A stretch of DNA of 63,945 bases, the filler included, from Hausera hauseri (Eukaryota): assembly GCA_046269625.1 (NCBI GenBank). It is 11 parts of 11 records of this genome, joined end to end, with 100 filler letters (N's around TTAATTAATTAA, not from the genome) between each part and the next. Parts side by side here need not be neighbours in the genome. Positions count along the whole stretch, not along the records: positions 34,818 to 41,925 come from JBJURY010037667.1; 10 more parts are not named here. One strand, given 5' to 3'. Below, one piece after another: positions 22,801 through 49,628 of this stretch. The notes beneath the pieces were generated by a model that worked only from the letters and a program-made list of their open reading frames with translations, ran no database searches and was not told the origin of the DNA. The position numbers were made by a program, and so were the translations under genes. Each line of letters starts with the position of its first letter. The first letter of the stretch is position 1.

Positions 22801-23250
22801 CTGCCAGGCACTACTACTGAACGTTGCGGGATTGTGATATCCTCAGTCAGTGAGACTCATTCTTCGTTACATTCTTCATTAAACCTTCTAAGTTGACCAG
22901 TTTTGACATCAATATATACGTTATCTAATTGGTGCAATACGTCGCATCCTATCAGTATTTTATTAGTTAAGTTTTTCGCTACTCTTATGGCGTGGTTTAT
23001 TGTTTGATCACAGATTTTGATTTTTGCGTTTAAGACAATTTTTATTTCCTCCTCCATTCCAAATGCTCCAACATTAATGTTTCTTTAGGCTTTCGTAGTT
23101 TACTTATTAGTTCATTGGGTAATTGACTCTTTCCCATTATTGTGGTTGTGGATCCTGGATCTATCAAAGCAGTTAGTCGATATCCGTTTACTTCAATATC
23201 TATTTATGGTGTCATGCAGGATCGAGGCTTGTTTAATACTAATTTTACAA
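19892..23250 (-). mobile_element. Ty3/gypsy pol (PR-RT-RNaseH-IN) of glycoprotein-bearing element C
   Basis: ALIDPGS protease (~23161), RFCVDYRELN..DTYPLPRID, YIDDVII, LATDASDYGVGAVL, YTDHRPLQWL, HD...GGH..YFWPTM..C..C, LTDQASN and VER; frameshifted. Confidence 0.95.
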
Positions 23251-23546
23251 GTAGACTCGCGATTACATGGTGAGAGGTTTTCATCATAATCCTGTTTTAT
23301 TCTTAACACTTGATATGTAGGATACATCCCTCCATGTTTCAGGTATTGTGGAGCTGATGGGTTTATCAACAATTGTTCATTATAAACTTGTCCATGGTAT
23401 TCTTCCGCAGGGTCTAGTTGCGGCAGATCAGTAACCAGCTTCTTTTGGTATTTTTGCCTGTGTGGCTTTAACGAGAATCTTTTAAGTCTATTAGTGTATC
23501 TATTACCTTTAGACCTAGTGTCTAAATCGTTATTATCATCGTCGTT

Positions 23547-27493: not shown

Positions 27494-30400
27494 TGTGGGC
27501 CGATAGACTGCCAAACCAACAAAGCCCGGTAAGTCAACACCGCGGCATCAAACACCACGGTCATGCGGCGTCGTGTGCCGAAGCAAAACCAGGACTTGTG
27601 GTGACGCCCGAAACTGTGGCACCACATTACCCCCGTGGCAAAATAAGATTATGTAAAGCAAAAAATGAAACTAAGAAGCTGCAAAGAGAGTAGTTAATGT
27701 GATCTAATCAGTTTTGGTATGAACAAGACGTTGAACCTTATCTATATTTTGTTCTCTGCTATATTTGCTGAAGGTAATTATCTTGCTTTGTTTAACGTGC
27801 TGTTTGCTTCTTTGTGTCTGTGTTCGGGGTGAAGTTCTATTTTGATTTGCCTTCTTAGCAGGTTGAGAACTGGTAGGTATGCCGTTTAGTGTTGTTGGGG
27901 GTCTTAGAGTAGCAGGTTGTCATGTAGGTAGATTGGAGGAAGAATTGAAGGAGTCGAAAAAGGTTTGTGCAGACTCAACTGAAGATTCCGGTGTGTCATT
28001 GACAAAGAATGCTGGTTTTACGTTAGTTATGTGTACTTTTTGTTCTTTATAGTTTTTGAGTATAGTAACTATGTGTGAGGTATTATTGAGGACTTTAAAT
28101 GGTCCTAGATAGTTTGGTTGGAATCCGGAAGGTGAAGGGTTTTTAGCCACACAAACTTTGCGTTAAATAGTGAATCAGGTAAGTATGTTTTGTCACCGTG
28201 TATTATTTTGCAGAAGGAATCCTGGCTTAACTGAACGAAGTGATTTTGTGCAGATCGAATAGTTTCGTCAGTTGGTTTGTTGTCCAAATTGGTAAGTTTG
28301 AAGAGTGCACGGAATGTGGTACCGAAAAGTGCTTCGGCAGGTGAGCAACCCGTAGTAGTAGATGGTGTGTTGCGCCAACCAAGTAATACGAAATGGAGGA
28401 TGTTGGTCCAGTTCGTATGTGTTTTAGCTAGAATCTTTAGCGAAATTTTAAGTGTGTGGTGAAATCGCTCCAATAAGCCGTTCGACTGGGGATGGTATGG
28501 AGTAGTATGAATATGGTTTATACCCAGTCGATTAACTAAGGATTTGAATAGGTTGGATTCAAACTGGGGGCCTTGATCTGTAATTATATAGCGTGGTGAA
28601 CCGAACCGACTAATCCAGGTTCTTATGAATGCGTCGGCTATGGAGTCTATATTGATGGATCGCAGAGAAACGACTTGCGGCTAACGAGATGCACGGTTTA
28701 TCATTGCTAGTACGAATTGGTGGCCGTTATTAGAAGGCAGTGGGCCCACAACATCTAGGTGGACTGATTCAAAACGGGACGTGCAGGGAAAATAGCATAA
28801 TGGTGGTTTAAGATGCTTGGCTACTTTAAACTTTTGGCAAGATACGCATTTCCTAACCTAGTTTTGCATATTAGACCTCATTGATGGCCATGTTACGTGA
28901 CGTTTGAGGAGCCGGAATATATCTTTGGAACCTAGGTAATGCAACGAATGAACATGCTGAAATGCGGTCTGTTGGAGAGAAGGTGCCAAAATTGGTAATT
29001 GTTGCCCTGGCGTCGACGTGTCCATAACTATTCCCTCAATCAATTGTACAGATTTGTATCTTTTAAGAGTTTCAGCTGAAGGAGGATTTTGGATTAATTG
29101 TTCTTTAGAGAATATTGGCGTGACGCTAATAGCACCAACTGACCGTGATAAGAAATCGGCTATTAGGTTGTTTGTGCCGGCAATATGGCAAATTTTAAAG
29201 TTAAATGTTGAAAGATATGATATATATCGTTCTTGTCGAAGTGATGGTTGTTTCATGTTCCTTACGTGAACAAGAGGTTTGTGGTCCGTTTAAATGGTAA
29301 AGGAACGAGCAATAAGTAGGTGAGCAAAATGTTTCAGAGCTAAAACAATGGCCAGGGGTTCTCTATCGAAGGTAGAATAACGGCGTTCTTGTGGTTGGAG
29401 CTTGCGTGAAAAGAGTTCTAACGGTTTATTTATTTCTTGAGATATTTGATGAAGAACCGCTCCCACTGCTGTCGTTGATGCGTCGGTTGTTAAAATGAGG
29501 TCAGCATCAGGTTTTAAATAAGCTAAAATCTCGACTGTTTTGAGCTTGTCGCGAAGTTCATCGAACTTGTTAATAAGTTCTGGTGTCCAATATATGATCT
29601 TTTTCTTCGGCCCTGCTCCTAGTTGAGTGAAAGGAGCGGTTAACTGGCTACAATGTGGGACGTATTTATGTTCAAAATGTAAAGTTCCGAGGATTCTACG
29701 CATATCAGTAGTAGTTTTTGGTAGCTCAATGTTTTGTAGCTGATGGATTCTATCAGGCTGTGGACTGTAACCATCAGGTATGATGACGTGTCCAAGGAAA
29801 GTTACCTTTTTCTGAAAGAAGGAACACTTAGAAAAGTTCACTTGCAAGTTCTAGTTGTGCAAACGTTGGAAAACTAGTCTAAGATATTCTTCGTATTGTT
29901 TGAGCGATGCCGATGAGACTAGTATATCGTCGATGTACGGATATGCAAATGACAAGTCTGAAAAGACTGAATCAATATGCAGTTGAAAGGTTTGTTTTGC
30001 GTTCTTTAAACCGAACGGCATGAATGCATATTCAAAGAGACCAAAAGGTTTTATTATGGCCTTCTTTTGGATGTCTTCGCGAGCTACCCGTATTTGGTGG
30101 TAGGCTTTTTCAAGATCTATAATCGAATAAATTGTGGTCTTGTGTAAAGAATTCAATATATCTTTTATCAAAGGTAGAGGATAGGCATCCATGGTAGTTA
30201 CGTTATTAAGTTGGCGATAATCGCCGCATGGGTGGAATGTGCCATCTTTTTGGAATGACGTTGAGTGGTGCTGCCCACGGTGATTTTAACCGTTTTATTA
30301 TGCCGGCTTGCTCGAGTGCAGAGAATTCCGTTTGTACTACTTGTCGACGGCCTGGTGAAAGTAAGTGGAGTTTTTGCCTAACAGGCTTGGGATTTTCTGT

Positions 30401-32649
30401 GACGATATGATGAAATGTCGTGTTAGCTGGTCGAAATGCTGGGTCTTTTTTTATTGTATGGAAACAAGACTTGGTTAAATATTGTTGCATTTCTTGGCTA
30501 AGCGTAGTAAAGGATGTTGTTGTTATGGCCGTGGCTTGATTGGATTTAGTGGGAGAAACGCTAGAAATCGAGTCGCCTAAGTCGTCCTTGTCAATGCCTT
30601 TGGTTTCTCTAATACCGGACTGCAACCAAAATGTTGGATTATTTAAACTGGTATTAAAGGCAATATTATTTGCGTTTGCTGATGGGTCTTTTAATATCGC
30701 TTTTATTGTCGAGACAGGAAGCAAAATCGGTTGGTTATTTGTGGAGATCGGTTTTGTTGAATTGCTTTTAATAAGCCGACGTTGTCTACAATCTACAAGG
30801 AGGTTGTAAAAATATAAAAAATCAGACCCAATTATTGGAGATTGTGTGTCGGCAACGATGAATGTCCAATTAAAAATGTCGGAAAAAGGCGGTAAAGTGA
30901 ATGAGATCTTGTACGTGCCGAATATGCGTAATGCTTGGCTGTTAGCTGTGTATAATTTTGTGGTAGATGGTGAGATGAATGATGTTTTGATATATGGTGG
31001 TAATAAAGAAACAGCCGCCCCAGAGTCATTGAGGTAATTGATTGATTGATTGGATTCGGAAGTTAAAGAAGCTTTTAATGTGAAAACGGCATAAATACGG
31101 CTATCATTATGGAGACGTTTGCCTGTGTCAAAATGTGCCGAAACATCTGGCGGCTTTGTCAGTTTTTTGGAATAGAAGAATTTGGGGGGTCAAAAGAATT
31201 ACGATGCAATTGGTTAGGTTGATTGGAGAACATGCATCCGTTGATGCATTTACGGGCATTGTTGCTGAACCTACCGTGGTAAATAAAAACGTTGTAAGGT
31301 CTTTGGAAAGCGGGTGTGAAGAATTTGCACCCCAAACAACATTTGTTGGCTTTGTTCTTGAATTTAATGTAATAATAATACACCATAGGTAAAGTAAGGG
31401 ACTAAGTGGATCTCGAATTGTGCGATGAGGCGCGGTTATGATTAGGTGTAAAACGATCCCGTCGCGGTATGGATAAATTTTCCAATTTAGACGTTAAAGC
31501 GGAAATTGCTTGGTGTATTGCCGTGTTTTCAGTCCGGAGAGCGTCGATTTAATTATTTAATGCTACGATTTCTGCATTGAGTGTTGTCATAGAGGGTTTT
31601 AATGTGGCTGCAACGATTGGAGTATTGTGAGTATTTAGTATGTCGTGGCTTTTATCAGCCAGCTGTGCTAATTTCTCTAGTGTAGCAGTGTCTTCCACGA
31701 CGGTTAATAGAGCCCGTATTTCTTTCGGCAACGATTGAAGGAAATATTTACGTAGTACGTCGGCATTGTTTGTCTGATTTACTCCTAACTTTTTAATTGG
31801 GTCAAAGATGTTTGTAAAAATTTTGATGGTTTCTGGTTTCTTATCGAATTATCATTGAAATATTTTTGGATAATGTTATCCAGAGATGGTTCCGTAATTT
31901 TTAAAATTGCGTTAAAAAGTGTTTTGTATGGGTCACTGCTTTGAAAATTTTCAGACAAGTTTGAAATCCGCGACTTAATGTTGGAAGGCAAGAGTATAAG
32001 CAAGCTGTTTGCTTTAAGAAAAGAGTCGACAATATTATTCGACTTCAACCAAGCCGCATGAAAGTCCAACCACGTCCAGCTGGAGTGTTGCTTGTCGACA
32101 AAGTATTCGACGCAAGGTAGATTTAAAGTAGACGACGGAGGTAAGTTTAGCGGTACGTTTGTAGTAGGAATGTCGGCAAAGTCATATTGGTCCATAGAGG
32201 AGGCTTTTGGCTCAGATCTCCCTAACAGGCAATAGTGTACAATTAATATAGGTGTTGAGGATGAGTGGGTGTAACTTGTTATAATGTCGGATTGTTGGCG
32301 AAAAAGTCCATTAAAACTAAGGCGGAAATTAGCAAAAGTTGTTTGTCGTTGTAACATGTGTGACAATTTTGCTATTTTTACTGATTTGTGAATGTAGTAG
32401 GTTTGTGTATGCTTATTTTCAAATAACAAGGCAAGTGGGACGAAAATGTCATATAAATCTGGTATGTAATGTGGTGTTCGCAGTGTAATCGCGGGAAGGT
32501 ATTCGCCAATGTGGCGCCTGGGCCGCCCAACCGAAACGCCAGCCGCTCCAGTCGACGCTCGCCAATCGTGGCTCGCAAGCTGGCGGGGACCAAAGTAAGT
32601 TTTCGGACGTGTAATCACTTCCGTTCGTTTAGATGTGTGAGTCTGTACA
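27494..32649 (-). mobile_element. Near-complete CsRn1-like Ty3/gypsy element A (gag ~32195-31150; pol ~31050-27707), decayed
   Basis: gag W.......I.....LP..I......DPY..L...KPS.FL with CHCC-type knuckles; DSGAAVSLL protease; YIDDILV; LTTDAS; VHLDVVGPLP, ITDQGPQFES, MERFHHTLK and YLGPF; PPT gggggtaa then a short 3' LTR (27626-~27494). The 5' LTR (~32510-32649) is only weakly similar. Confidence 0.92.
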
Positions 32650-32679
32650 TCTATATTGTAATGAGGTATGACTTTTATT

Positions 32680-34503
32680 TGTAACTTTTCCGTTGGTTTA
32701 AATTTCCCAGTACTTTTTGATGCGTAAACATTATCTGCTTCGTTCGAAAGTTCGAAAACTATTTTTATCGTTTCAATTTCACTTAACAAACCAAATTTTT
32801 CGTTTTGAGAAACGGGTGATGGAAGTATATCTAATATCGGGTTTTTTGTACGTTTAACAAAATTTATATTGGCTTCTAGTCCCAGTTCTTTAAAGGAACG
32901 ATTGGCGAGTGAAATGAGTTTCGACAATATAAACCACACAAATGACGATAAATTATGTTTACTGCGTTCAAATTTCACTAGCATTCGTAGTGCCTGAATT
33001 TTATTTCGGGCCTCAATTTGATTTAAAGACACAATTGCTGGGTCAATCGGTGGCAGAATTCTGGTATTTAAAATGGCGTCAATATCCAAAACTAAAGGAC
33101 CAGTTAGTGAAGATCTGGTGGCTGTAGATCGAGCCCCAACCCTTAATGTTTTTTCTAGACTAGTCAATAGATAACTGTGAATATTATCTGACAACTTTGA
33201 AATGAATAGGCTAGCTAATTTCGATGAGTAAATCGGTGGGAAACTGAGTCCCGCTTGAATCGGCGGTTCAATCATGACTTTGATGTTGTCTCGAATTTTC
33301 TGTTGACATCCATTTGCTATGGAACCCATGACAGTATAAATCGATGGTTCTAATAATGAATGACGCTTTTTCGTATCGTTATTTGGTAAGTTCGACTTGA
33401 TAGGTTCAATCGTTCTTCGAAAATATTTCGTTTTCTTGAACGCAACTGCGATAATGTGTGCGATAATTCTAGTACCCAAATATGACCATGCTTTTGTACG
33501 ATCTTTACGAATACACTAGTTTAAGAATTCCATTGAATGGTTCCTTTGAACTTCGGACGTTAAACTTGTATTCCATGCGATAAGTATTAGTAATGCTTGA
33601 ATTACAAATAGGATCATATGGGGTTATTTAGAATCGAAATTGGGGATAACGATTTGCCATATCTCGATTAATTTCTGCAACAATTTTAGCTGTGAATGAT
33701 ACCGGTAGGTTTTCGGACGATGTTGCGAAATGTGTTCCTCAATTTTACTATACGGCAATTCCATTCGACATGCAGCTTTTGCTGTTGAAATTCTGGATGG
33801 TGGAGTTGGATATGTAAGTTGATCCATCGTCATGCCAATCATATTCTCTATTCGTAGTCGATTGCTCTCGGTATTTGCTATCCCCATGATTATTTTGTCG
33901 TTGAATTGTACCGGCGTATCATGTACTTTCTTCTAATAACTTTCACCTTGCTTTCTTTGACAGAGAACTCGGGTTTAAACATATTGAAATTAAAGTGTTG
34001 CATTCGCAGAGAAACCAACAGCCGAACAGACGCCATGAAGTCGTATAAATGCTTAGGAAAATCATTTTGCTGCAAAATCCATCTATGTATTTGCTGAATA
34101 CAACACCAACATATTGACTGACATAGACGCTCTCGTTCAGAGATAGTGATTGCAAGAAGTTGCTTCTTACATTCTTCATAGAGACAAGTATCATTTTAGG
34201 GATTATATATTTCTCTAAAAGAGAATCTGGAAAATGCAATTTATTCGATGACTGGAGAATATTCCACATTATTTCTGGAGCAACAGGAACTTTGATTACT
34301 GTTACGAAATTAGGTTGAATGTCGTTCGGAATGTGATTGTTATAGTCATTTGTAAAACAAAATTTTTCGTGAATTTATGTAGGCTTGGCCTAATTGTAAA
34401 ATCTTAAACGAAGACATGAACAAATGTATATCTACGTAAACCATTATAATGGTCTAACTTCGAATGTTCCAATACAATATCAGAATATGTAAACTGCCAA
34501 TGA
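32680..34503 (-). pseudogene. TOR kinase N-terminal HEAT-repeat fragment, copy 2 (intronless)
   Basis: KDRTKAWSYLG..IAVAF...YF.R.IE.IKSNLP..D.KKR...EPSIYT.M..IA....KIR.NIK.MIEP..QAGLS and ALRMLVKFERSKHNLSSFV...SFKELGLEA align in order with mTOR KERTAAFQALG.LSVAV...YLPRV...IR..LP..D..KR...D.TVFTCI..LA....IQ.DIK.LLEPML.VGLS and ALRTLGSFEFEGHSLTQFV...EHKEIRMEA. Confidence 0.8.
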
Positions 34504-34717: not shown

Positions 34718-34821
34718 NNNNNNNNNNNNNNNNNNNNNNNNNNNNNNNNNNNNNNNNNNNNTTAATTAATTAANNNNNNNNNNNNNNNNNNNNNNNNNNN
34801 NNNNNNNNNNNNNNNNNTTAT

Positions 34822-36200
34822 TCAATCATTGATTACGCTCTGTGGTACCATCACCCTTAATTCTCTCTCAGTGATTTTATGGCGCTTAACACAGCAATTT
34901 TGGTAATCAATCGACAAAACGCAATAAAAATTGAGAGCAAATACTGACGTTCCAATAATCGATGTTAATGACAAAGTTGTCCATTTAGTTAAATTTCTCA
35001 TTTTAGCGGTAGTCATAATTTCATCCTCCGTTTTCTCATTAATCAGTGGTTTTGTTACGACAATCTCATTTACAGTTCGTACTGCGAACATTCTACTTTG
35101 TTTGCTCTCTGCACTCATTTGTATTATATAGTCCGTTTTGGATTTCAGACCGGTGCATTTGGTTCGATAGCTACCTTCAACCAATGTTACTTTCTGATTA
35201 TTGTGTAATGTTCGGCAGCTTATTTCTACGTTGCAGTTAAGGGTCTCTTTTACAATGAACGTTATTTCACAACGTTGCCTCCAATATTTTATAGGAAGCA
35301 TTTCTAGATCCTTTTGAAATAATCCACTCGTTAGAGTAATTTTGGTGGATATCGGAGTGGTAGTCCTTTTTTGTAGTTCTACTCATTATCTTCTGCGGAA
35401 CTTGCCCGATTGGATTTCCAAACTGGTAACTTCCTTAATAAATACTCGACTGGTTTAGTCGAACTTCCTATAAGTCTAATCGAATTCTGTATTTATATTT
35501 TTGCGGTAAATTGCAACATCTTTTCGGTCTTTCAACGTCAATTCAACAGTATTGTTGGTCCGGAGCTGCTTTGTTCTCGACCGTTAATTAATCGCCCTTT
35601 GGTATTTATTTGGACACAGTTGTCCTTCGGATTTTCCGTTATACGGCCTATATTTTCCTCTAGCATCTGTTTTAATGGATCATTGGATTGGAGTATGTCT
35701 TCCAGCTTTATGTCAAGGTAGTCTCTATAAGTTCGTAGTTTAACTAAACATGAATTCATCCTTATTTCAGCGTGTACATGATTACAATTTGGCAAATATG
35801 AACGATAGCTGAAGGCGTAAGAGTGTCCGTACTCTACGTTACAGCAACTAGTACAATGTCCTGGTTCGAAATGGCACTCGAACTCGGCTTGGTTTGACAA
35901 GTCATGGAGTAGTATTTGAATTCGTCGTTTATATGGTCCTAATAACTTAAATTCGACACATGGTACTTCTGGAGATAAATAATCTAATTCTATTGCTCGT
36001 AAACATTTTTCATCTTTTTTGTTCGATTTGCGTTCGGAAGTTTTTTCTTTTGGCGATGAAGGTTTTAATCCGCTTTTTTTATTCCATATACATCATTCAA
36101 CAAAGTTTCATCTATCCACCATTGAGCATTAGTCTTAGGCGCTAGGACAGGAATCAATGTTAAGGCTACTATTATCTGTGCATAAGATACTGGTCTAGTG
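34822..36200 (-). pseudogene. Type I membrane protein (signal peptide, Cys-rich ectodomain, Thr-rich stalk, FN3-like domain, TM) fused 3' of the integrase of element D
   Basis: In frame after the integrase tail YNLRPR: QIIVALTLIPVLAPKTNA|QW. Then CHFEPGHCTSCC..CNH..C, TTKRTTTPISTKIT, CTGLKSKTDYIIQMSA (FN3 GL.P.T.Y.V.V.A pattern), TM WTTLSLTSIIGTSVFALNFYCVL and a CC-containing tail; frameshifted. Confidence 0.62.
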
Positions 36201-39200
36201 ACAATCGACGATGTATTTTTTTCTCGCGGCCTTAGATTGTAGTGTTTAGCTGGTCTTACATCCGTTTTAAATACTCTTTGGACTGATACGATTTCCTCTT
36301 TCCCATTTTTGTTAACATAGACCGTGGTTGGCATTGTGAGGATGATTGCATATGGTCCTCTTCCGGTACGTGTTAATTTCAAGAATGTACCCTTTTTCGC
36401 GACTGGGTAATATATATAAACCCAATTTCCCTTTTTCAGATCATGAAGTTTAATCTTTTTATCATATTGTTTTTTAAATTGTTCCTGATATTCTAGTGAT
36501 TACGTTTTTGCCACTTCCCAACACTTTTGTAATCTTGTCTGTAATACTTCAGCAAAGTTTTGCTCTAGATCCTCGAGGTTTGTTTCCTACGGTGTCATAC
36601 TTAGATCTGTGGGTAAGATTGCCTCTCCTCCATACATCATAACGAACGGTGTAAATCCTGTTGCTGGATGTGGAGTTGTATTAATTTCGAACTGGATCCC
36701 TTCTAGGAATTCGCCCCAACCCTTCTGATCTTTGACCACTACTGTTGATAGTATACGGATGACTGTTGCATTCATACGTTCGACCATCCCATTACACTGG
36801 GGGTGATAGGAGGTAGTATTTAAACATTCGATTTCAATATCTTAGAAATTTTTTTAAATAGTTTGCTTGTGAAGTTCCTTCCTCTGTCTGTTAAGATTTG
36901 TTCTGGTGGTCCGTATATGCAGATGATTTTTCTAACTACTGCTTCGGATAAAGTTTCTGCCTTTTGATCGAATATTGCCACCAGTTTGACGAAATGCGTT
37001 AATCGATGCACACATTTTAGGATGTATCTGTTATTTTTGTGAGTTTTTGGCAAAGGTCCTACTATATCCATAGACATGGCTTGCATAAGCCTATCTGGTA
37101 CGTTTATGGGTTTTAGTTATGCTACGTAGCCTTTTGTTTTCTTTTATTTTATCGCGCAAACTTCGCACGCTCCTACCCAATTCTTCACATCAATATAGAT
37201 GCTTGGCCAATAGTATTTATTTAATATTCTTTCCATGTGTCCGGCTAATTATGAATCGTGTTCGGCCATGAGTACTTCGATGCGCAATTCTTTTGGAATA
37301 ACTTAGTCTTCTTCCTTTTCGCTCGTAGTATAGTATATTATCTTGGTTCAATGCATGATATTTATGTCCGTGTTTCTGTAGATGCTTTTTCAGTTGCCGT
37401 CCCTTCGGTATTTTGTCGTTCTGTACGAACTCGATAATTTGTTGAATAACCGTGTCTTTAGCCTGCTCGACTGTAATTCCGATCGTCTTATCCGATATTA
37501 GAGTTCTTTGTCGTTCAATCAACTGTTCAGGTTGTGGCTTTTTATTGTGGTAATTGCACTCCTTTTTGTCTTTAATTTTGACAGTGCGTCAGCGTTGACG
37601 TGTTTATTACCCGGTTTGTATTGAAATTCAGTGTTATATAGTGAGATTTCTTCGATCCAACGGTTTAATCTACATGTTGGGTTATTATCTCGTTTTCTCA
37701 ATGTTGTAACTGCTTTGTGATCAGTCACTATAATAATCTTTTGCCCATAGACTAAGAAATTAAAATGTCGGAGTGCTTCTTTTACGGCTAACGTTTCTAA
37801 TTCGGTAACCGAATAATTCTTTTCTGCTTTTTTAATGAGAGTCCTCCATAGGATATTTGGATGTTCTAATTCTTTGTCTTCTCGTTTCTGAGCTAATTCG
37901 TGTCCTATACCTTCTTTACTTGCCTCTGTATTAATAATGAATGGTACGTTAAAATCCGGGTATTTTAAAACTGGTTCGCTTATCAAAACTTCTTTCATTT
38001 TGTCAAATGCTTTTTGTTCCACTTCTGTTCATCTCCACTTGGTTCCTTTTTTCAGTAGGCGATATAGTTGCGCGTTAATTTTCGAGTTGCCTGGTACGTA
38101 AGTAGAGTAATATCCACATAGGCCTAACCAATGTCTTAACTCTTTGTGATTCTGTGGTTCCATACAATCGAATATTTTATCTAGCAGGAATTTGTCCGGT
38201 TTTCATCCTCCTTCTCCAACGATGTGTCCGAGGTATAATACTGCGTTCTGTGCCCATTTACCTTTCTTTGGATTTAGTTTTAGCCTTGCTTGTTCTAGCC
38301 AAATGAGTGTATCTTCAATGTCCTTTAAGTGTTCCTCCTCTGACTTTGATGCTATCATCACGTCGTCTAAGTAAGCGAATGCATGATCAAGTCTCATAAA
38401 CATTTTATTCATCATTCTAGGAAAAATAACTGGTACTGTGGTTATGCCGAACGGCATAACATTAAATTCATATACGCCATCGTGCGTTTTGAACGCTATC
38501 TTATATCGATCTTTTTCTTCAATTTCTACTTGCTAGTACCCCGATTGTAAGTCGAGAGTGGTAAACCATTTCGCTACCGATAGTCTGTCTACAGCTACTT
38601 TTACTGACGGTAGGGGAAACGGGTCTTTCATCATCAGCGTATTTAATGCTTGATAATCTATACAAAACGGGTGTTTTGTAGTTTCTTTCTTTTTAACCAT
38701 AATTACAGGAGAGAACCATGATCGAAAACTTGGTCGAATTATATCGGCCTTTAACATTTGCTTTACTTCTTTAATTATTTCTGGTCTCCGTGAATGAGGA
38801 GGTGGATACCATTTAGGCATTTTCTGTTCTTCTAGATCGATTTCGTTACTTAAGCCGGGTTTTTTCCTTAATGGGATTTTTAATCTCAAAGAATTTGTGC
38901 TGCCTATGTCTTCCTTATTTTGTGCGATTATTGAACGATATTTGCATAGTAATTCGTAGAACTTGCAATACGCTTCAGGAGAGAATTTGGTTGCAACATG
39001 AAATGGAAATTCAACACACTTGTATGGTTTCTCCTCTACTGTCACTGCCGATACTCTGCAAGTGTGACCTAAAGTGGTGTTAGCGTGCAATTTTACGTGA
39101 ATTGGTGCATTGTTTACTAATCTCATAGATATTCATCCCGTCACTACTCTACATAAAATGTTGCTAAACAGGAGGTTTGGATCGATATTCTCCTGAGGTT

Positions 39201-39700
39201 CGAAATATACTGGTAGATCGTCGTCTTGACGAATTTGTGCGAAAATTATCATTTCGGTTCTTGACGGAATGTCTTCATCCACCGGAATCCATACTTTGCC
39301 GATTTCCTTTCCTTTATTAGTTTTGTCCCTTCTATTGGTTCGAGCTCAATTAGTTCTCCGTTATGCACATCAATTGCCATGCCTGGTATTTGTTTCAATA
39401 TATTGCAATCTAGTACTACATCGTCTGTTAACTGGTCCATTATCGCAAATTCATGTTGAAGTGCTTGGCTCATCATATAAACGGTAGGGGTCCATTTAAA
39501 TTTCGGCTTCGATACTTGCCCAAATGCTTCTACACTACGTGGGTCCGATGATGCTGGTGGGCATAGCTGGTCTCACAATGTGATTAGTATAGATTCATAT
39601 TTTATAAATGACTTTTCTGATACTGTGTCAATTAATGCATACACCTCCCAATCTTCGACGTGTATTTTAGCAAAAGTCTCCCTTCTGTCACTGTTCCGTA
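36200..39700 (-). mobile_element. Ty3/gypsy pol (PR-RT-RNaseH-IN) of glycoprotein-bearing element D
   Basis: YALIDT protease (~39630), FCIDY..LN..KDPFPLP, TTLDLQSGY, YLDDVMI, VTDHKA, NADALS, MDIVGPLP, LTDRGRNF, VERMN and GRGPY. Confidence 0.95.
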
Positions 39701-40238
39701 ACAATTTGACGCTATCTTTGACTATTTTATAGTAGAGACTCTGTGTCCGTTTGTTGTTATTTCTGGAGATGAGAGGATATTTTTTCTTAATTGTCTTAAT
39801 TCTCCGTTTAGGTATAAATTATTATTTGGCATCTCATTGACGCGACTGTCAATAAGCGGTTCGTTAGGTAGTGAAACCGAGATCGAACACAGTTTTGGGT
39901 TCTCCCAAATTGATGGTTTTGATTCTATGTGACGCCGTATCCTTTTGAGTACAATATTCCGTGGTCGTTTTCTGTTGGTCCTTGGTTGATAACATTCATT
40001 TTCCGTAGTACTCCATATTGTTTTGTTTTTTCATACAGATCTTCATAATTAATAGGCTTTTGATAGATTTCGGACCTACATGATACGATATATTTGCGGT
40101 CGCAGTCTTCATATATTGGTGCCTTTGGTGGTATGATGGATTATGGGGCGTTAATCACTGAGTACATTTTGTGCATCTTCATTCTGGAACTTACTTCTCT
40201 TCCCTTAGGCTCGTCGTCATCTGAATCATCCTTTCGTG

Positions 40239-41925
40239 TTACTGTTTTTTATTTTTAAGTCTATACAATATCGAGATCTTTCCTTGCCGTTTACGATTAT
40301 AGTAGCCGACGTGGCGTTCTACGTCATTCTTCCATCGATTTTCCTCACAGGCCTTAAGCATTTTCCCGAAAGGTGTGATAATTGCAGTCAGAATTTTACA
40401 GAAAACTCCCGTTAATGTGAATATTTCATAACCGTTTATGACGGCTTGGACTACTGCTTTAATTCGCTGGAATAAAAAGTAGATGGATAGAAATCCAGAT
40501 GCGGCTTGTCCGAAAATCAGAAACCTTCCCCAAATCTTATGCAGTATTTCTGAGGTTACTCTTTGATAGTGATTCGCACCGAGTAACGATTCCCATTTCG
40601 TTTGAAAGCGGGTATCGTCCATGACCATTGACATGGCCCGATTCAGTTCATAAGTTCGTTGTCGTGGAAATGCTAAGAATTGCCTAATAGCTTCTATGTC
40701 TTTTGGCCTATAAATTCCCTTATTAGCCGTGTCCTCGAACTTTCCTTCTGATAATACTTTTTTTAACTTTGTCCTAATTAGCTTACCGGGCCTGTAGCAG
40801 CGCCTCTGTTCGGTAAACTTATCCAGTCAATTCCGCTACATCGAAGCATAGGGTCGCCTAATCTCGTTTTGCATTCCTTCAGTATGCTTGGTTTCGTTGA
40901 GTTTGCCAATAATACTCTGGTAAGTGGCATTGCTAGTCTCGGCATATTTTCATAGATGACTGGTAATTATTGCATGCACCTTTTTTCTTCTACGTTGATT
41001 GGTATGTCTCTTTTTTCGCATTCATACGTTAATAGGACTTTTCCGGTAACTCGTCCAAAAACGCCTTCCTTCAACGGTATAATTGGTAATGCTAGTTCTG
41101 GGTTGGCATAGACTGAGGCCAGCTTGGTTCTCATGACTTCAGTATCTATTTGCAGTCATTTCTTATCATTTTGTGGTATAGTTCCGATATTCCGATTTGC
41201 CCTTTATAGTAGAAATAGTCGTCTTAATTTTTGAGGTAATCCTCGATCCGTATGTCTTGCGTTTTCAAATCATTCGTTTTCATGTTAATTTCGGTTTTTG
41301 CTACGAAAAATGCTTTGTAGTTTGTGGCATACGTAACTACATCACAGCGTGTTAACATCTCCTTTCTGATGAGCTTTAAACCGTGTGCATCCGATATTAA
41401 TATCGTTGGTTTGCGATGTTCTACTACATCTTCCCTTGATCTGTTGATTGTCAGTAATTTATTTGTATAACGTTTTCCGGTTGTCTCATTAAACTTTAAT
41501 TCTTCGATTTTAATGAAATTACAATCTCTCTTGGAAGGTGGGCTGCATACAACGACTGAACTTCTGAACGTGCAAGCACCATCTTGGATGTGACACTTTT
41601 GATTTTCGGTGAATAGTTTCGTAGCGTTATGAAACATAGCTTTTAGAAATCTTAACTCGATTTTGTAAAAATCTACGACTACTATTCCTCCCTTCCCTGT
41701 TTCATATTCTCCTCCGGCACAATAACCGGTGTGCATGCTCAATTTTTTTACTGCCACTTTGTAGGCTCTGATTATTTTCCCTTATTGGGCTTCTAATTCC
41801 ATGTTGTCCCAAACCATTTTACCGGTTAACCGGGCTCTTAAACAATGCTGTCTATCTACGTTCATCGGAATCAATGGCGTGGTAGGTTTAATTATCGAAG
41901 AATGTCTGTACATATTACCACAATG
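40239..41925 (-). pseudogene. Chuvirus-like envelope glycoprotein upstream of pol (element D); extreme N-terminus lost in gap
   Basis: HCG.MY.HSS, C.RA.LTG, GYCAGGEY...IVVV, CHIQDGAC, LYH...C, GVFGRVTGKVL...C, C...LPVIYEN...MPLTRVL, GIY...DI..IR.FL.FP and WGRFLIFGQAASG...INGY.IF...G...IL.AI. Confidence 0.85.
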
Positions 41926-42849: not shown

Positions 42850-43440
42850 TCGGATAAACATTTTCGTTTCAAGAAACACGTCGGTATTTCTTCCGTTTTT
42901 GGTTCGTCTTTGTTTGTCGTAACGAACGTTTTTTACCGGGTTCGAGAAATTGCAGTCGTTTCGATTTATTGCACGGTTCGATGTCCTGATGTGTTAAAGT
43001 ACTTAAATCATCGGTTGATTTGCGTTTCTTGTTGTCGATGGTTCAATACCGGTTTGAGTTTAAAATTTTTCATAACGATTCGTAATATTGTGATCCATCA
43101 TTAGTTGCCAATAAACTGTCGTAAGGTAGAATAATTTTCTCATGATTAATTTGCAATGCATAAACGTGATTGCAACAGTTATAGCTCAATTTCATACCAA
43201 TTTTCGGCCAGACTTTATTAACGGTCACATGATCATCGCTGGCATTTTTACGAACTAATTTGCGTAATTTGTACGGATCTAGATGTCGTCCGTTGATATT
43301 TGGTACTTTCAATTTGTCGGATCCTTGAAATCGTATAAACTGGGATAATTTCGTCAGAAAATTCAATTTAACTCGTGATTGCACTTTCATTTCACAAATT
43401 CTTTGTACTCTCGGTGTAAACTGAAGTGTGTTCACGTCTA
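42850..43440 (-). pseudogene. KDM5: KDM5/JARID1 (lid) post-JmjN linker plus ARID domain fragment
   Basis: VDVNTLQFTPRVQRICEMKVQSRVKLNFL..L..F..FQG...LKVP.I.GRHLDPY.L...V...V...K.W.KI..KL.Y...L..NHEKIILPYD matches KDM5 VDV..F.FTPRIQRLNELEA.TRVKLNFLD.IAKFWELQG..LKIP.VE.K.LDLY...LK.HYERILYPY; stops downstream. Confidence 0.88.
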
Positions 43441-46400
43441 CCGGTATCGGGTGACAGATAATTCTCCAGGATTGTGGTGACGTCTACAGCTGCTGCACCA
43501 CATTTTCCTTCCCCGTGGCAAAGATGACATTACGTACGGCAAAAAACAAAATCAAAAGGAAAAAAGGTGTGCGTGTTCTACTCAGTTTTTGTACGAACCA
43601 GACGTTGAACCTTATCGATATTTTGTTCCCTGCTATATTTACTGAAGGTAAATGTCTTGCTTTGTTTGGCGTGCTGTTTAACTGCTTGATGAAATGGTTG
43701 GGGTGAAGTTATGTCTTCATTAGACATGTGGGCAAGTTGAAAACTGGTTGGTATGTCATTTAGTGTCTCTTTATGAGTTGGTGCGGATTTTAGGGTAGCA
43801 GATTGAATTGTAGGCAGATTGCAAGAAGAATTGAAGGAGTCAAGAAAGGTTGGTGCAGATTCAATCAAGGAATTTGGTGTGTCATTAACGAAGAACGCAG
43901 GTTTTACGTTCGTTATGTGCACGTTTTGTTCTTTGCCGTTTTTGAGTATTGAAATTGTGTGTGAAGTAATGTTGAGAATTTTAAACGGTCCTAAATAGTG
44001 CGGTTGAAATCCAGATGGTGACGGATTTTTCAACCATACGAACTTTGCCTTAAATAGGGAGTCAGATAAATATGTTTTGTCGCCGTGTATTATTTTACAG
44101 AAAGAGTCTCGACTTAGCCGGACGAAATGATCTTCTGCGGACCTAATGGTTTCGTCAGTCGGTGTGTTGTCTAAATTGGTCAGTTCAAAAAGTGCACGAA
44201 TTGTGGTGCCGAAGAGTGCTTCAGCGGGTGCGCAACCGGTGGTGGTAGATGGTGTGTTGCGCCATCCGAGTAATACGAATGAAAGGATGGTAGTCCAGTT
44301 CGTATGTGTTGCGGCTAAAATTTTTAAGGAGATTTTAAGAGTTCGGTGAAATAGCTCCAATAAGCCATTCGACTGGAGGTTGTACGGAGTAGTATGGATA
44401 TGGTTTATGCCAGTCAATTGACTAAGGATGTGAATAGGTTTAATTCGAATTGAGGGCTTTGATCTGTGATAACATAGCGTGGTGAACCAAACCGACTAAT
44501 CGAAACCCTCATAAATGCATCGACGATGAAATTTGTGTTGATGAAGCGCAAAGGAACAATTTCGGGCCAACAAGATGCGCGGTTAATCATAGTTAAGATA
44601 AATTAGTAGCCGTTATCAGGTGGTAGTGGACCAACAATATCTAGGTATACAGATTCAAAACGGGACGTAGATGTGGCTTAAGATGCTTAGATAATTTGAA
44701 CTTTTTGGCAAACCACGTATTGCCTAACCCAACCCTGTACGTCACATCTCATTGATGGCCATGTTACGTGATGTTTGAGTAGGCGGAATATAGCCTTCGA
44801 ATCTGGGTGATGCAATGAATGAATATGGTTAAATGCTGTTTGTTGAAGAGAAGGTGCCAAAATTGGCAAATCGTGTCCAGGTGTCGACGTTTCCATGGCT
44901 ACGCCATCCATGATTTGGACAGATTTATATTGTTTAAGTATTTCAGTAAAATGAGGATTCTGAACCAATTGTTCTTTAGAAAAAGTAGGCATGCCGCTAA
45001 TTGCCCTAACCGATCGTGAGAAAAAATCGGCTATTAAATTATTTATGCCAGAAATATGGCACATTTTAAAGTTAAACGTTGACAAGTACGAAATATGACG
45101 TTCTTGTCGAAGTGATGGATGGTTCACGTTCATTACGTGAAAGAGGGGCTTGTAGTCTGTTTGAATAGTGAAAGACCGGGCGATAAGTAAATATGAAAAA
45201 TGTTTAAGAGCTAAAACGATGGCCAGGAGTTCCCTATCGAAGGTTGAATAACTGCATTCTTGTGGCTGAAGCATACGTGAAAAGAATTCTAGTGGTTCAT
45301 TTATTCCTTGAGATATTTGATGGAGAACCGCTCCGACAGCTGTGATTGGTGCGCCAGTTGTCAGGATGAGATCGGCATCAGGTTTTGAATAAGCCAAGAT
45401 GTCAGGGGTTTTAAGATTATTGTGGAGCTCATCGAACTGGTTTGAATGTTATGGCGTCCAATATAAAGGTTTTTTCTTCGGCCCAGCTCCTAGTTGGGCG
45501 AAAGGAGCAGTTAACTGGCTATAATGTGGGACGTACTTATTAACGAAATGCAAAGTCTCGAGAAAGCTGCGCATATCAGTTGTAGTTTTTGGCAGTTAGA
45601 TATTTTGTAATTGTTGAATTCTATCAGGCTGTGGATAGTGACCGTCAGCCGTGATGATGTGCCCTAGGAAGTTGACTTTCTTTCGAAAGAATGTGCATTT
45701 TGCGAAGTTAACCTGTAATTTGTTGTTATTCAGGCATTGAAAAACAAGCTTGAGGTGTTCAGCGTGTTGTTTAGGTGAAGATGATATGCCGTTGAACAGT
45801 TGGGCTGCGTTCTTTAAGTCAAACGGCATGAAGGCTTATTCGAAGAGGCCAAATCATGTTGTTATCGTCGTTTTTTGAATGTCTTCGGGCGCTACCGGTA
45901 TTTGGTCGTAGGCTTTTTCTAGGTCTATAGTGGAGTAAATTGTAGATTAATGCAACAAATGTAAGATGTCCTTTATCAAGGGTAAAGGGTAAGCATCCAT
46001 TATGATAATATTATTAAGTTGACGATAATCTCCGCATGGTTGGAATGTACCACCTTTTTTGGGTACAACGTGAAGTGGTGAAGCTCAAGGTAACTTCAAA
46101 CGGTGGATTATTCCTGCTTGTTCAAGTAACATGAATTCAGATAGAACTGCTTGTCGACGGCATGGTGATAGTGGCCTGAGTTTTTGACTGATAGGCCGAG
46201 GATTCTCGGTGATGATGTGATGGAATGTCTAGCTAGATGGTCTAAAAGTTGGGTCCTTTGTGATTGTGTGGCATCAGGACCTACTTATGTATTGCTGGAT
46301 TTCGTGACTTAATGAGGCAAATGGCGTTATTAATAAATTAGATGGTTGATCAATGACAGAATTGGATATGGTGGATATTGAACTGTCTAAATCGTTTTTG

Positions 46401-46940
46401 TCAACGTTTTTAATTTTGTTACCATTGGGTGGAAATATAAAATTATCAAAATCAGTAGTGTTAAAATTCTTATTCGTATTTAAATTAGGTAATGACTTTT
46501 TTATTATAGGCCTAACANNNNNNNNNNATCTGTATACGTTATATTTACTTGACTGTTTCTAACTAAACTACTTTGTCTACAGTCTACTAGGAGGTTGTAG
46601 AAAGATAACAAATCTGAGCCAAGTATTGGTGACTGTGTCGGTTACAGTAAAAGTCCAGGTGAAAACGTCAAGAAAATGTTGTAACATGAACGAAATTTTG
46701 GATGTTTTGCACATTCGTAATGCTTGGCCGTTAGCTGTATATAATTTCTTGGCTAACGGCGAAAGAGTTTGAGTTTTTGTAGAGAGAAGCAGAAGAAACA
46801 CTGCTGCTCCAGAGTCGATTAAAAAATTAATTGATTGAGTGTGCTTAGTTGTTATTAAAGCGTTTAGAGTAAATACGGCATAAGTACGGCTGTTACAATG
46901 GAGATGTTTGCTATGCCAGCGTGCGCCGATACATCTAGCG
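43430..46940 (-). mobile_element. CsRn1-like Ty3/gypsy element B (pol plus truncated 3' LTR); RT YxDD segment deleted
   Basis: FLIDSGAAV protease; CGDYRQLN..DAYPLP; MPFDLKNAAQ joined directly to SSPKQH (YIDD missing); integrase 43578..44417; PPT ggggaaggaaaa then TGTGGTG at 43502. Paralogue of element A. Confidence 0.92.
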
Positions 46941-47040
46941 NNNNNNNNNNNNNNNNNNNNNNNNNNNNNNNNNNNNNNNNNNNNTTAATTAATTAANNNN
47001 NNNNNNNNNNNNNNNNNNNNNNNNNNNNNNNNNNNNNNNN

Positions 47041-48780
47041 TACTATTAGATTTCTAGACACTCTTCTAATTTTACCAGCTTCACTGAAAACATTAGCCTC
47101 CAATTTATATAATTACCCTTTTAAAAAATCGGCCTTTCCTTCGGACATCATTAAGGGAAAAGGAATTTTTCCATACACTGCAGCTAAAACATTCAGTAAC
47201 TAACAGTCTATTAGTTATTTACCGCCTAAATGGGATGATATTACCGACACTGATTCTGAGGAGGCTCAAATTGCCTGGTCCAGATATACATGTAACAGTC
47301 TTTTAGATTATATGTTGGTATATATGAAACTTGATGTATACTTGTTAGCTGATGTTTTGAACTTTTCAGAAAGGAAGTTAAGTTACAGGATAATTTAGAG
47401 GCAATAAACTTCGTTTAAATTCCTGGTTTGTCCTGGGACACAGCACTGAAATCCAGTCCTTGTAAGATTGAGCTTATACAGGATCCTCACATGTATCAGT
47501 TCTTTCAATCAGGAATTCGCGGTGGTATGACTTTTATAAATAAGCATAGGGTTACCACTGATGAAAGCACCAGTCTCTTGTATATAGATGTAAATAATTT
47601 GCACGGCTGGGCTTTATCTCAACTTTCGCCATTTGGAGAAATTAAATGGTTTGATAGAACAATTGCCTTATGTTGACACTGTTAGGAAAAAATGAGGTTT
47701 AGTCTTTGAGATTGATTTAAGCATCCCATCAGACAAGCACGATAAATTGGACCAACTGCATCTTTCTCCAATCAACCTATGTCCTCCTGGTTCCAAGGTA
47801 AAGAAAATATTGCTGACACATCAGCCTAACTCCAATTATATTATTCACTATCGGCTCTTACAGTTGTACATTGAGTTAGGCGCAGTAATTGAAAAGGTTC
47901 ATCGCGCTGTTGAGTTTGACCAAGGCTATGTCTTTAAGGATTACATCGATTTAAATACTGCTAAGAGGGCTGCAGCAAATAATCCCTTTAAGAAGAATTT
48001 TTTAAGCTCAAGAACAATATTTTATTCGGCAAAACACTTGAAAACCTTCCAAAAAGGTCCAACTTGAGATTGTGTAATAATGCAAAGAAGCTTATTGCTT
48101 ATGCTCGTAAGGCCAAGTTTAAAGAAAGTATTATTATAGCCGATGATCTGGTTGCCGTTCTCCTTGATAAAAACATGGTTTCATGAGACAGACCTCATAC
48201 ATTGGTCAGGCCGTATTTGCTCTTTCTAAGTTAAGAATGTGTGAGCTGAATTACATTTAGATGGAGTATTATAGGCAACATTTTCATTGTCAGTTAAATA
48301 TTATTGCTGGTGACACAGACGATTTTGCCACTGAGTGTCATGAAGTTCATTTGCTATCACAGCTCATGGCAACAATGATAGCTAATGAACAGTTGGACAC
48401 GTTTAATTACAACCATAGTTACCCGCCTTATTATACTCGTTTTGTGACTGTTATAGGAAAATTTAAGGACGAGAGTAATGGTAGTGTTGAATACCAAGAA
48501 GCGATTACTTACGGCCAAAATCATATGCCTTTAAAACTCAAAGCAGAACCGTCCTTAAATGCAAAGGCAATAACCTGAAACAGGCGGACCTAGAGTTTAG
48601 CAACTACCTACAGGCATAGGAAAATGGATGCGGGACAACTGTTAATCAAGAACGGATTGGAACCAAAAACCATCAACTTCTGACGATCAGTGCAAAAAAA
48701 AGCTTGGGACCCTTTTGATGATAAGCGACACTGAATATCGTAAAACAAAGGTGTTGCTTACGGAAATTACTGTATTTGAT
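47041..48780 (+). pseudogene. Polinton/adintovirus protein-primed DNA polymerase B (C-terminal half)
   Basis: KGIFPY, DVYLLADV, PGLSWDTALK, SGIRGG, LLYIDVNNL.GWALSQ, YIDLNT.KR, GDTD, GKFKDE and DDKR; frameshifts and stops. Confidence 0.93.
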
Positions 48781-49267
48781 TGGAACATATTTTAATGTTT
48801 TTTTATGTGTTATTGAAATAAATATTTTTTAAAATGTCTTACTTGTTTTGTTGGATAGGTTTTTTAGTCATAGTAAATGCGTATATTTTCTGTATTTACA
48901 GTTTTACACTGCGGACAGTGTGTTACATTTGAACATTTAGAACATACAACCAAATGACCGCACATTAGGAAAATAATATCTACTTTATTCTGTTTGCATT
49001 ATACACACATAAACTGACACTTAACTACTTTATTCTTAATTTTCTTTTTCAAGTTGTTTAGTTCAGCACGTACCTTTTCAACAGTATTAAAAGAATTTGT
49101 ATCATACAATCGGTGTATGTATATTTGATTTATCACACTCACCAGATTTTCAAGTGATTCACACTCTGCTGTTATCATCATTGTTATTGATGCTAGATCT
49201 GCTTGAAAACCGAAATCTCTTGCTTTTACAACTAAATCATTCTTAAGAAAATATGATTGATTCTGAA

Positions 49268-49618
49268 ATCGTTCCCATTTACGGAATACCTCAGCAGAGT
49301 GGTAAACTGCCGTATTTCGTTGGTAAATAGTACGATTCTGGATGGTTACGTACATCGGCACATTTAGCATTTTCGATACTGAAACGTATTGGAGCCCTTG
49401 AGGCAAAAACAGCACAGGATGTGCTGCATGAAAACAAATCAATTCTAAAAAAGCACGTCTGCCGAAATAAAAAATTTTGCATCAGGAGTCATTAAATTAG
49501 TCCAAAAACATTTCACTGCCAGAGATTTGAGAAAACGTGGTGGTGGTGCTGGTAAACGTAGAACATCATCTAGTCTTTCAAATATAATCAAACGTCGTCA
49601 TCGTACGGTTTTCGATTA
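49268..49618 (+). pseudogene. Polinton/adintovirus small basic core / pVII-pX-like protein, copy 1
   Basis: QSG.LPYFVGK.Y.SGW...LKRIG...KTAQDVL.ENK with an Arg/Gly-rich tail RKRGGGAGKRR...RHRTVFD; homologous to 58145-58504; immediately 5' of the capsid gene. Confidence 0.65.
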
Positions 49619-49628
49619 ATTGATTGAA

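Follow-up and report, generated by a model that had tools for sequence, protein, structure and literature searches.

A decayed Ty3/gypsy element, probably Burro-like, with a chuvirus-like glycoprotein ahead of Pol and a candidate second membrane protein after integrase

Results

The window, that is the whole stretch of 63,945 nucleotides analyzed here, comprises 11 short contigs with N-TAATTAATTAAN-N linkers between them. Element D occupies the contig at positions 34818-41925 and is read on the minus strand. Its coding pieces were translated on this strand with stops read as X and then searched against Pfam profiles. In the direction of translation, the following features were recognized:

41149-41925, minus strand: glycoprotein (G), first piece, truncated where the contig stops; PF24664 positions 85-339 of 653, E 2e-7; 2 stops
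40787-41149, minus strand: G, second piece, in a different frame; PF24664 positions 344-424, E 3e-4; 1 stop
40239-40787, minus strand: G, third piece, which includes the membrane anchor region and the first part of the tail; PF24664 positions 472-602, E 1.6e-19
39699-40238, minus strand: decayed linker between G tail and protease; stops in all three frames, neither gag knuckle nor LTR
39330-39698, minus strand: degenerate aspartic protease; ALIDT motif at 39638, and position
38980-39270, minus strand: dUTPase-like segment between protease and reverse transcriptase (RT), from alignment with relatives
38218-38697, minus strand: RT core with YLDD; PF00078 (RVT_1), E 4e-30
37636-38028, minus strand: RNase H; PF17919, E 3.5e-26, and PF17917 (RT_RNaseH), E 3.9e-23
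36272-37290, minus strand: integrase in two frames, with zinc finger, core and GPY C-terminal domain; PF17921, PF00665, PF18697
36131-36193, minus strand: internal signal-peptide-like hydrophobic stretch (hydropathy 2.11), in frame with the integrase C-terminus
35538-36092, minus strand: cysteine-rich frame of 184 aa (10 Cys), presumed first part of a second ectodomain
35098-35268, minus strand: FN3-like domain with the two cysteines of the family and LxxxTxY, found with the relatives' profile
34933-34977, minus strand: second membrane anchor, weakly hydrophobic (hydropathy 1.62), followed by a tail up to the contig end

Three collinear pieces of G are followed by the protease motif, the dUTPase-like segment, RT, RNase H and integrase, and the Pfam matches, together with the protease motif, bear out the succession of G, linker, protease, RT, RNase H and integrase on one minus strand put forward in the initial annotation. 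The limit set there at 36200 has to be abandoned, as the element continues past it until the contig stops, at about 34822. Stops and frame changes interrupt all coding parts of D. A repeat comparison of contig 34818-41925 revealed no LTR-like repeat, no CCHC knuckle is present in any of its minus-strand frames, and an Rfam search gave 0 matches.

The glycoprotein lies where it had been placed (41925-40239) but not as one ORF, since it is spread over three frames that contain 3 stops. The pieces are collinear along PF24664 (Monjiviricetes_fusion); the signal peptide and the part matching the first ~85 positions of the profile fall outside the contig. In tblastn comparisons, identity to relatives amounted to 19-29% for the first and 27-38% for the second piece. 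The third piece joins the clade of protease-fused G proteins with a support of 0.988 and stands apart from stand-alone proteins of ~650 aa in a tree calculated with FastTree only from 155 residues of 58 sequences (motif and length filter on 157 relatives, plus D). A fold check of G had been recommended; it was performed on relative P0007, whose predicted structure (pLDDT 77.5) matches herpesvirus gB (E 1e-13) as well as Tacheng tick virus 4 G (E 2e-44). We regard G as a chuvirus-like class III glycoprotein, the fold being predicted from the model of this relative and not of D.

As previously stated, neither a capsid nor a knuckle separates G from the protease: the ~540-base linker of D contains no capsid match, no knuckle and no LTR. 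From G anchor to protease, D has 299 codons as compared to 130-390 in 17 relatives, and the gap between G and POL is about 0.55 kb, set against 2 kb as the criterion for a gB-like ENV upstream of POL. Of the protease reported at ~39630 the motif stands, whereas profile and homology support does not: neither a Pfam protease match nor a tblastn match with relatives was obtained in D, and the protease is therefore named from motif and position. The dUTPase-like segment is conserved in D, element B (see below) and the relatives, and the top PDB match of its profile is a dUTPase, albeit a weak one (E 0.12). Ty3 RT is the best PDB match of the RT (E 1.5e-77, 264.7 bits; retroviral RTs at most 90.5 bits), in full agreement with the original Ty3/gypsy assignment, and the RT-RNase H region is only about 40% identical to relatives. 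The integrase is collinear with relatives in tblastn and matches Integrase_H2C2 (5e-9), rve (9e-10) and, weakly, MLVIN_C/GPY (0.0045). Peptidase_A17, DUF1759 and DUF5641, which we take to be the Pao-specific Pfam families, were detected neither in D (E<=0.05) nor in six relatives (E<=0.5). Judged by the order of protease, RT, RNase H and integrase and by the RT match, Pol of D is of the Ty3/gypsy type.

A second, independent decayed copy resides on another contig of the window:

19892-24948, minus strand: element B, with G, protease, dUTPase-like segment, RT, RNase H and integrase

Both contig ends cut this element. It matches PF24664 twice (E 4.7e-16 and 2e-10) and is collinear with relatives P0003 and P0005 in tblastn, protease included; blastn gave no match between B and D, and their RTs are 41% identical. 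Element B and the second membrane protein after integrase had both been missed initially. Elsewhere in the window, a host-type MON1 piece shows just 35-40% identity to every named animal, and an integrase fragment at about 8992-9207, on another contig, is presumably BEL-like. One public sequencing run shares 27% of the words of D; no RNA dataset is among the holders listed. In this run, 14,912 contigs match D at 85% or more and all 30 bins of D are covered, which is consistent with a multicopy family. The run may, however, stem from the source sample itself, and its depth over D, lower past the integrase, cannot rank the parts of D; none of this enters as evidence here.

When all protein representatives were searched with G of D using HMMER, 155 matches were obtained at E<=0.001. 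PF24664 is present in all 12 matches at E<=1e-10, nine of which carry a Pfam protease downstream in the same protein. Two of 19 relatives scanned, P0022 and P0096, turned out to be unrelated WD40 proteins and were dropped. A word-based search for the third G piece of D among longer proteins yielded none; locus searches retrieved 0 of 26 candidates from viral_contigs, 0 of 21 from genome_contigs and 2 of 31 from metagenome_contigs. Nine relatives (P0003, P0005, P0271, P0274, P0277, P0278, P0279, L001 and L002) encode G as well as RT and integrase in a single frame, with which the pieces of D and B are collinear; a search for adjacency of G, protease and RT had been proposed, and B shows the same order within the window. 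At the DNA level, the frames of L001 and L002 contain no stops, L002 constituting a gag-env-pro-pol frame of 3703 codons; no LTR pair was found in either. Gag is located upstream of G in L002, P0277, P0278, P0003, P0008, P0010 and P0023, and 7 of the 18 relatives inspected possess CCHC knuckles, each time 5' of G. The suggested (gag)-env-pol order is that of the relatives, whereas any gag of D or B would lie beyond the contig. Pol had also been proposed to be translated as an extension of the glycoprotein tail. This follows from the nine single-frame relatives; because the protease of D lacks a profile match and its linker is closed in all frames, continuity of G and Pol is demonstrated in the relatives only.

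Several relatives contain two to six protease-like domains, with an ORF for a DEDD exonuclease further downstream. Further matches are an ankyrin match in P0271 (E 5.5e-6), a weak Bcl-2 match in P0007 (E 0.001) and weak ubiquitin-like matches in L002 (PF00240, E 0.005; PF11976, E 0.015). In L001 and L002, Bcl-2 did not match the BCL2-like stretches, and none of the relatives scanned yielded a MATH or BIR domain.

A signal stretch, FN3-like domain(s) and an anchor follow the integrase at the same positions in eight of the nine single-frame relatives, the exception being P0279. Intact relatives have one to three such FN3-like domains, and the module is doubled in L001. FN3 proteins dominate the weak matches of the module, which contains the FN3 motif LxPxTxY: 24 of 26 PDB matches of its profile (best E 0.005) are proteins that we take to contain FN3, and a second module profile again ranked fibronectin first (E 0.015), with pilin-type proteins making up four of seven matches. 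Residues 300-530 of P0273 reached Atlas fn3 clusters at 0.86-0.87, a lead only. Pfam fn3 matched neither D nor the relatives, the AlphaFold model of the D domain (pLDDT 39) had no structural match at E<=0.001, and BLASTP of this domain against L002 found no significant match. These weak sequence matches hint at an FN3 fold.

It might be argued that the region after the integrase of D, in an element otherwise as described, is an unrelated host gene or the chance flank of a truncated copy. The FN3-like domain of D is only 19-29% identical to those of relatives, its fold prediction is unusable, a first leave-one-out profile reached D with an iE of 0.37 only, and the cysteine-rich frame at 35538-36092 matched neither Pfam nor, in hhalign, the FN3-like profile (best Atlas score 0.79, a lead only). 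On the other hand, the signal stretch continues the reading frame of the integrase C-terminus, the layout is that of eight of nine relatives, no intron-like interruption is needed, and a profile free of D, built from 10 domains of 8 relatives, ranks 35098-35268 first among 858 tiles (14.8 bits, iE 9e-4; next 5.3 bits). We therefore consider an origin from host gene or flank unlikely.

Discussion

D is very probably a dead copy of an animal Burro-like GAG-ENV-POL Ty3/gypsy element, its host probably being a flatworm, an assignment by association only. The relatives display the gene order, the single frame, the conserved second module and, in one of them, the G fold. Burro, also GYPSM1, comprises giant Ty3/gypsy elements of dugesiid planarians exceeding 30 kb with LTRs, in which, as described in 2019, gag and pol enclose an in-frame env with similarity to mononegavirus fusion proteins; decaying fragments were reported in Dugesia japonica (PMC6431247). 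According to the same account, the polyprotein (4,873 aa in Burro1) contains gag with CCHC knuckles, ubiquitin/SUMO-like and BCL2-like domains, a dUTPase-like domain between protease and RT, and ankyrin, MATH and BIR domains. Compared by this published description, our relatives agree in the single polyprotein with env between gag and pol and, mostly through weak matches, in ubiquitin-like, BCL2-like, dUTPase-like and ankyrin extras; P0271, with ankyrin repeats, has 4844 aa. They differ in that MATH and BIR were not found. In D, the part ahead of env, where Burro has its ubiquitin/SUMO-like and BCL2-like domains, falls outside the contig. The passages on Burro in PMC6431247 mention neither a second membrane protein after the integrase nor 2-6 protease-like domains with a DEDD exonuclease ORF.

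In 2026, GAG-ENV-POL errantiviruses with a gB-type, Chuviridae-like ENV were reported from Nematoda, Bryozoa and Platyhelminthes, without being monophyletic (PMC13524379). Together with Burro they contradict the former assumption that env-bearing Ty3/gypsy elements are always gag-pol-env (PMC6431247; PMC13524379). The platyhelminth C1a elements (Smed_errantivirus_1-6) resemble D in gene order, class III chuvirus-like ENV and Ty3/gypsy POL, and by eye their six Schmidtea ENV rows share the motifs of D's G; they are intact, unlike D, and the terms 'single ORF', 'fused' and 'polyprotein' do not appear in the text of that article (PMC13524379). Non-canonical nematode ERVs that captured an RNA-virus glycoprotein and carry ENV before POL (Sacco et al., 2022, as cited in PMC13524379) are likewise metaviruses with ENV ahead of POL, but in the 15 nematode C1 ENV rows shown the motifs of D's G are absent by eye. 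Troyka (PMC12440569) was also considered and dropped. As an env before pol, in frame, is already published, D in itself is merely another decayed copy.

Could G of D belong to a different element, a BEL/Pao env or an endogenous chuvirus fragment, lying by chance, or nested, upstream of an ordinary gypsy pol? The linker of D is not open, and the presumed BEL-like integrase fragment (about 8992-9207) lies in the window. Dezordi and coworkers reportedly described, in 2020, mosquito BEL/Pao elements with a Chuviridae-like glycoprotein; they share the PF24664 glycoprotein with D but have a BEL/Pao Pol, as opposed to a Ty3/gypsy Pol with G upstream. Chuvirus-like G in BEL/Pao elements is also on record in PMC13524379. 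An identity of D as such a BEL/Pao element was rejected given the absence of Pao Pfam families and the location of G upstream and not after the integrase. The identical order in B and nine single-frame relatives, the grouping of D's G with protease-fused and not with stand-alone proteins, and a G-protease spacing inside the range of relatives across a linker devoid of repeats largely refute a foreign origin of G, which we regard as very improbable. Equally improbable are tandem or rearranged gag-pol-env copies or an ENV-GAG-POL order with a short gag in the linker, as known from two mites (PMC13524379): the contig end falls within G and the contig might be pieced together from several copies of one multicopy family, but the ~540-base linker has no LTR, capsid match or knuckle, and gag of the relatives lies 5' of G in the same frame.

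In intact relatives, the frame carries Gag with accessory domains and, behind an internal signal sequence, the class III fusion protein and its anchor; protease(s), dUTPase-like domain, RT, RNase H and integrase come next, and these are followed by a second signal, FN3-like domain(s) and a second anchor. By analogy with flaviviruses and alphaviruses, such a polyprotein is likely to be threaded through the ER membrane and cleaved on both sides: signal peptidase would release two ectodomains in the lumen, and on the cytosolic face Gag and Pol would be cut by the element's own protease. Both would reach the budding membrane through what remains attached to them, a hydrophobic stub in the case of Gag and the G tail in that of Pol; G would fuse membranes. 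D itself cannot make any of these products. Whether the fast-changing FN3-TM protein acts as surface attachment partner of G is, in our judgment, evenly balanced; alternatively, it may be a decoy or modulator of host receptors. We tentatively propose, with somewhat more doubt than assent, that Burro-like elements are two-glycoprotein retroelements, in which one frame of 2,600-4,800 codons, whose product crosses the membrane repeatedly, provides a class III fusogen ahead of Pol and, after the integrase at the usual position of env, a distinct surface protein that is built on FN3 and evolves fast.

The literature searched contains no account of LTR retroelements with such a division of labor between fusion and attachment. 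The post-integrase membrane protein is the one part for which we found no published description, although figures and Repbase entries may show it; 'fibronectin' and 'FN3' do not occur in the text and seven supplements of PMC13524379, and a study on rotifer ORF3 deals with DEDDy and TM ORFs, without fibronectin (PMC5408684). This conserved protein is the useful addition made here and can be checked in planarian Burro sequences. If it served in attachment, the choice of target cells by these elements would be explained, and they would be retroelements that divide binding and fusion between two proteins. In planarians, BURRO1 is abundant, active and intestine-enriched upon smedwi-2 knockdown (PMC8532177).

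Gene order of elements D and B

The window consists of 11 short contigs connected by linkers. The interest of element D, a decayed retroelement on contig 34818-41925, rests on a fibronectin type III (FN3)-like membrane protein encoded past its integrase. The visible part of the element opens with a chuvirus-like fusion glycoprotein (G), the N-terminal start of which lies outside the contig, past its end:

34818-41925 (contig), minus strand: G pieces, three PF24664 matches in profile order (85-339, 344-424 and 472-602 of 653)

A linker with stop codons in each of its frames leads from G to a degenerate protease motif, for which a Pfam profile search returned no match, and this motif is followed by Pfam domains for RT, RNase H and integrase, in that order. 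A comparison with solved structures placed the RT-RNase H nearest to Ty3 (264.7 bits), with retroviral RTs reaching at most 90.5 bits. The initial annotation had described a G gene ahead of a pol of the Ty3/gypsy type on the minus strand, with no zinc-knuckle gag motif between G and protease, and all of this is upheld; indeed, neither a CCHC knuckle nor a long repeat was found anywhere in the contig. All genes of this dead copy are broken, with 13 stops counted across nine frame pieces. Several copies of a multicopy family may have been merged into the contig as a mosaic, which would leave the architecture unchanged. A second decayed element, B (contig 19892-24948), has a gene order identical to that of D, and a search for DNA similarity between the two found none. 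Since B repeats the order without such similarity, the order in D is no one-off accident.

Intact relatives and the G protein

With the stop-free G piece of D as HMMER query, 155 proteins were matched at E<=0.001, of which 12 reached E<=1e-10. All of the latter contain PF24664, and nine carry a Pfam protease downstream on the same chain. The set of relatives comprised these matches, cluster members, the results of a second search and two metagenome loci, L001 and L002. In nine relatives G, RT and integrase lie within a single frame, which in L001 has at least 3426 codons and in L002 has 3703 codons without stops, arranged as follows:

L002 frame: capsid-like start, two CCHC knuckles, signal peptide, G, anchor, two proteases, RT, RNase H, integrase

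CCHC knuckles occur in 7 of 18 relatives, upstream of G in every case. Between the G anchor and the first protease lie 130-390 codons in the 17 relatives measured, compared with 299 codons for D and about 216 for B, and both decayed elements are collinear with the intact proteins. The question of whether gag lies upstream of G is thus answered positively in the relatives, where Pol also continues the G tail in frame as had been proposed; in D itself neither gag nor this continuity is visible. Three other readings of D, namely that its G is a neighbouring or nested BEL/chuvirus fragment, that the contig holds tandem gag-pol-env copies, or that a short gag resides within the linker, are each unlikely, as element B and the single-frame relatives count against them.

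In a tree built from a short alignment of 58 sequences, retained from 157 relatives and D after filtering, the G of D falls within a 20-member clade with a support of 0.988, 16 members of which are protease-fused. The structural comparison suggested at the outset was run on the relative P0007, whose AlphaFold model (pLDDT 77.5) has structural matches to the gB of a herpesvirus (E 1e-13) and to a chuvirus G (E 2e-44); judged from this model, the G of P0007 is a class III fusogen.

Several relatives carry further domains. Retropepsin-like domains are multiplied (2 to 6, some past the integrase) in P0271, P0277, P0278, P0279, P0005, P0008 and L001, among which C2H2 fingers are also present. A DEDD-type exonuclease ORF (PF00929) lies 3' of the polyprotein in L001 (10617-12107, plus strand, E 1.4e-5) and L002 (12085-13473, plus strand, E 1.1e-3) and resembles extra ORFs of rotifer LTR elements (PMC5408684). 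L002 also contains a 222-aa ORF (11375-12043, plus strand) without Pfam match. P0003, a 2627-aa G-Pol-FN3-like polyprotein, is entered at NCBI as a Flavobacteriaceae MAG protein and most likely stems from animal DNA that ended up in a bacterial assembly during binning.

Relation to Burro and other GAG-ENV-POL elements

The giant planarian Ty3/gypsy element Burro carries env in frame between gag and pol (PMC6431247). Chary and Hayashi (2026, PMC13524379) describe GAG-ENV-POL elements with a gB-type ENV from Nematoda, Bryozoa and Platyhelminthes, citing Sacco et al. (2022). By eye, six Schmidtea ENV rows in the supplement of that study have motifs in common with the G of D, and these motifs are absent from the 15 nematode C1 ENV rows shown there. 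The additional domains of Burro may recur in part: weakly in L002 (PF11976, E 0.015; ubiquitin, E 0.005) and P0007 (Bcl-2, E 0.001), as ankyrin in P0271, and in a dUTPase-like PR-RT segment of the relatives, D and B, the best structure match of which is a dUTPase, albeit weak (E 0.12). Burro's MATH and BIR domains were sought in the relatives and not found. D joins the known group of Burro-like GAG-ENV-POL elements as a new, decayed member and is a candidate member of Burro itself.

An FN3-like membrane protein past the integrase

The initial annotation was correct on the G-pol order of the element and overlooked the region past the integrase.

Features past the integrase of element D
36193-36131, minus strand: signal-peptide-like stretch, continuing the frame of the integrase end
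36092-35538, minus strand: cysteine-rich frame
35268-35098, minus strand: domain with two cysteines and an LxxxTxY motif
34977-34933, minus strand: hydrophobic anchor

A signal peptide, FN3-like domain(s) and an anchor follow the integrase in eight of nine relatives, P0279 being the one that ends without them. L001 has an additional module of this composition between its proteases, ahead of RT and inside the single frame (about 4750-5320, plus strand). When a profile of ten relatives' domains, with D left out, was scanned over 858 window tiles, the D site ranked first (14.8 bits, iE 9e-4; runner-up 5.3 bits); a previous six-domain profile had given it an iE of 0.37. Pairwise BLASTP of the D domain against a relative yielded nothing significant, and mutual identity among the FN3-like domains is 14-29%, compared with about 40% for the RT-RNase H of D. 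The module profile gave 26 weak matches in the PDB (best E 0.005), 24 of which we take to be FN3-containing proteins, and a second profile ranked fibronectin first (E 0.015; three of seven matches). Atlas features pointed to fn3 at 0.86-0.87, a lead only. Pfam fn3 found no match in D or the relatives, and AlphaFold returned an unusable model of the D domain (pLDDT 39). From their sequences, the domains look like fibronectin type III.

No description of the module was found in the literature searched, among it text of PMC13524379, PMC5408684 and PMC8532177, and it may well be an unannotated or previously noted part of Burro. That the FN3-like membrane protein is an undescribed attachment partner is a tentative idea, to which we would give somewhat less than an even chance.

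A model for the polyprotein

The polyprotein is a single frame with two internal signal sequences and two anchors. The following topology model is drawn from what is generally known of membrane polyproteins. Gag would be synthesized in the cytosol, the first signal would direct G, the putative membrane-fusing component, into the ER lumen, and the G anchor would bring the chain back to the cytosol, where protease, RT, RNase H and integrase would be made. The second signal would then carry the FN3-like ectodomain out of the cytosol, as far as the last anchor. The products would be split by signal peptidase and by protease(s) of the element itself, leaving a hydrophobic stub on Gag and a Pol that begins joined to the G tail. 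Capsid, enzymes and fusogen could thereby be collected at a single membrane with no need for frameshifting or splicing, at the cost of equal amounts of every product unless other controls exist. The likeliest role of the variable FN3-TM protein would be the binding of target cells, at about even odds against that of a decoy or modulator, which would be in keeping with the apoptosis- and ubiquitin-related cargo of Burro.

Other contents of the window

A stop-free 914-aa frame (12514-15255, plus strand), open at the contig end and beginning after an intron-acceptor-like site, joins intronless MON1 (aa 1-376, E 1e-64), CNOT10 (377-582, E 4e-38) and CFAP46 (706-914, E 6e-19); it is a chimera of processed transcripts from three host genes. 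Its MON1 piece is 35-40% identical to that of named animals, and P0151 shows 75% identity across this part with an unrelated N-terminus. By the identity to named animals, the host is an animal from a thinly sampled lineage, probably a flatworm as judged from the kin of element D. Decayed Ty3/gypsy elements without G match occupy 27600-33515, 43573-46984 and 17443-19309, the first two being 70-89% alike in DNA. The stretches 47696-50628, 56927-58144 and 59862-62042 presumably hold Polinton/adintovirus polymerase and capsid gene fragments, for which a search for Pfam support found none; 49250-50481 resembles 57272-58507 at about 80%. Two intronless pieces, a RING-finger ORF (53385-53987, plus strand, E 2e-10) and a decayed ARID-domain piece (43070-43483, minus strand, E 6e-13), are also present.
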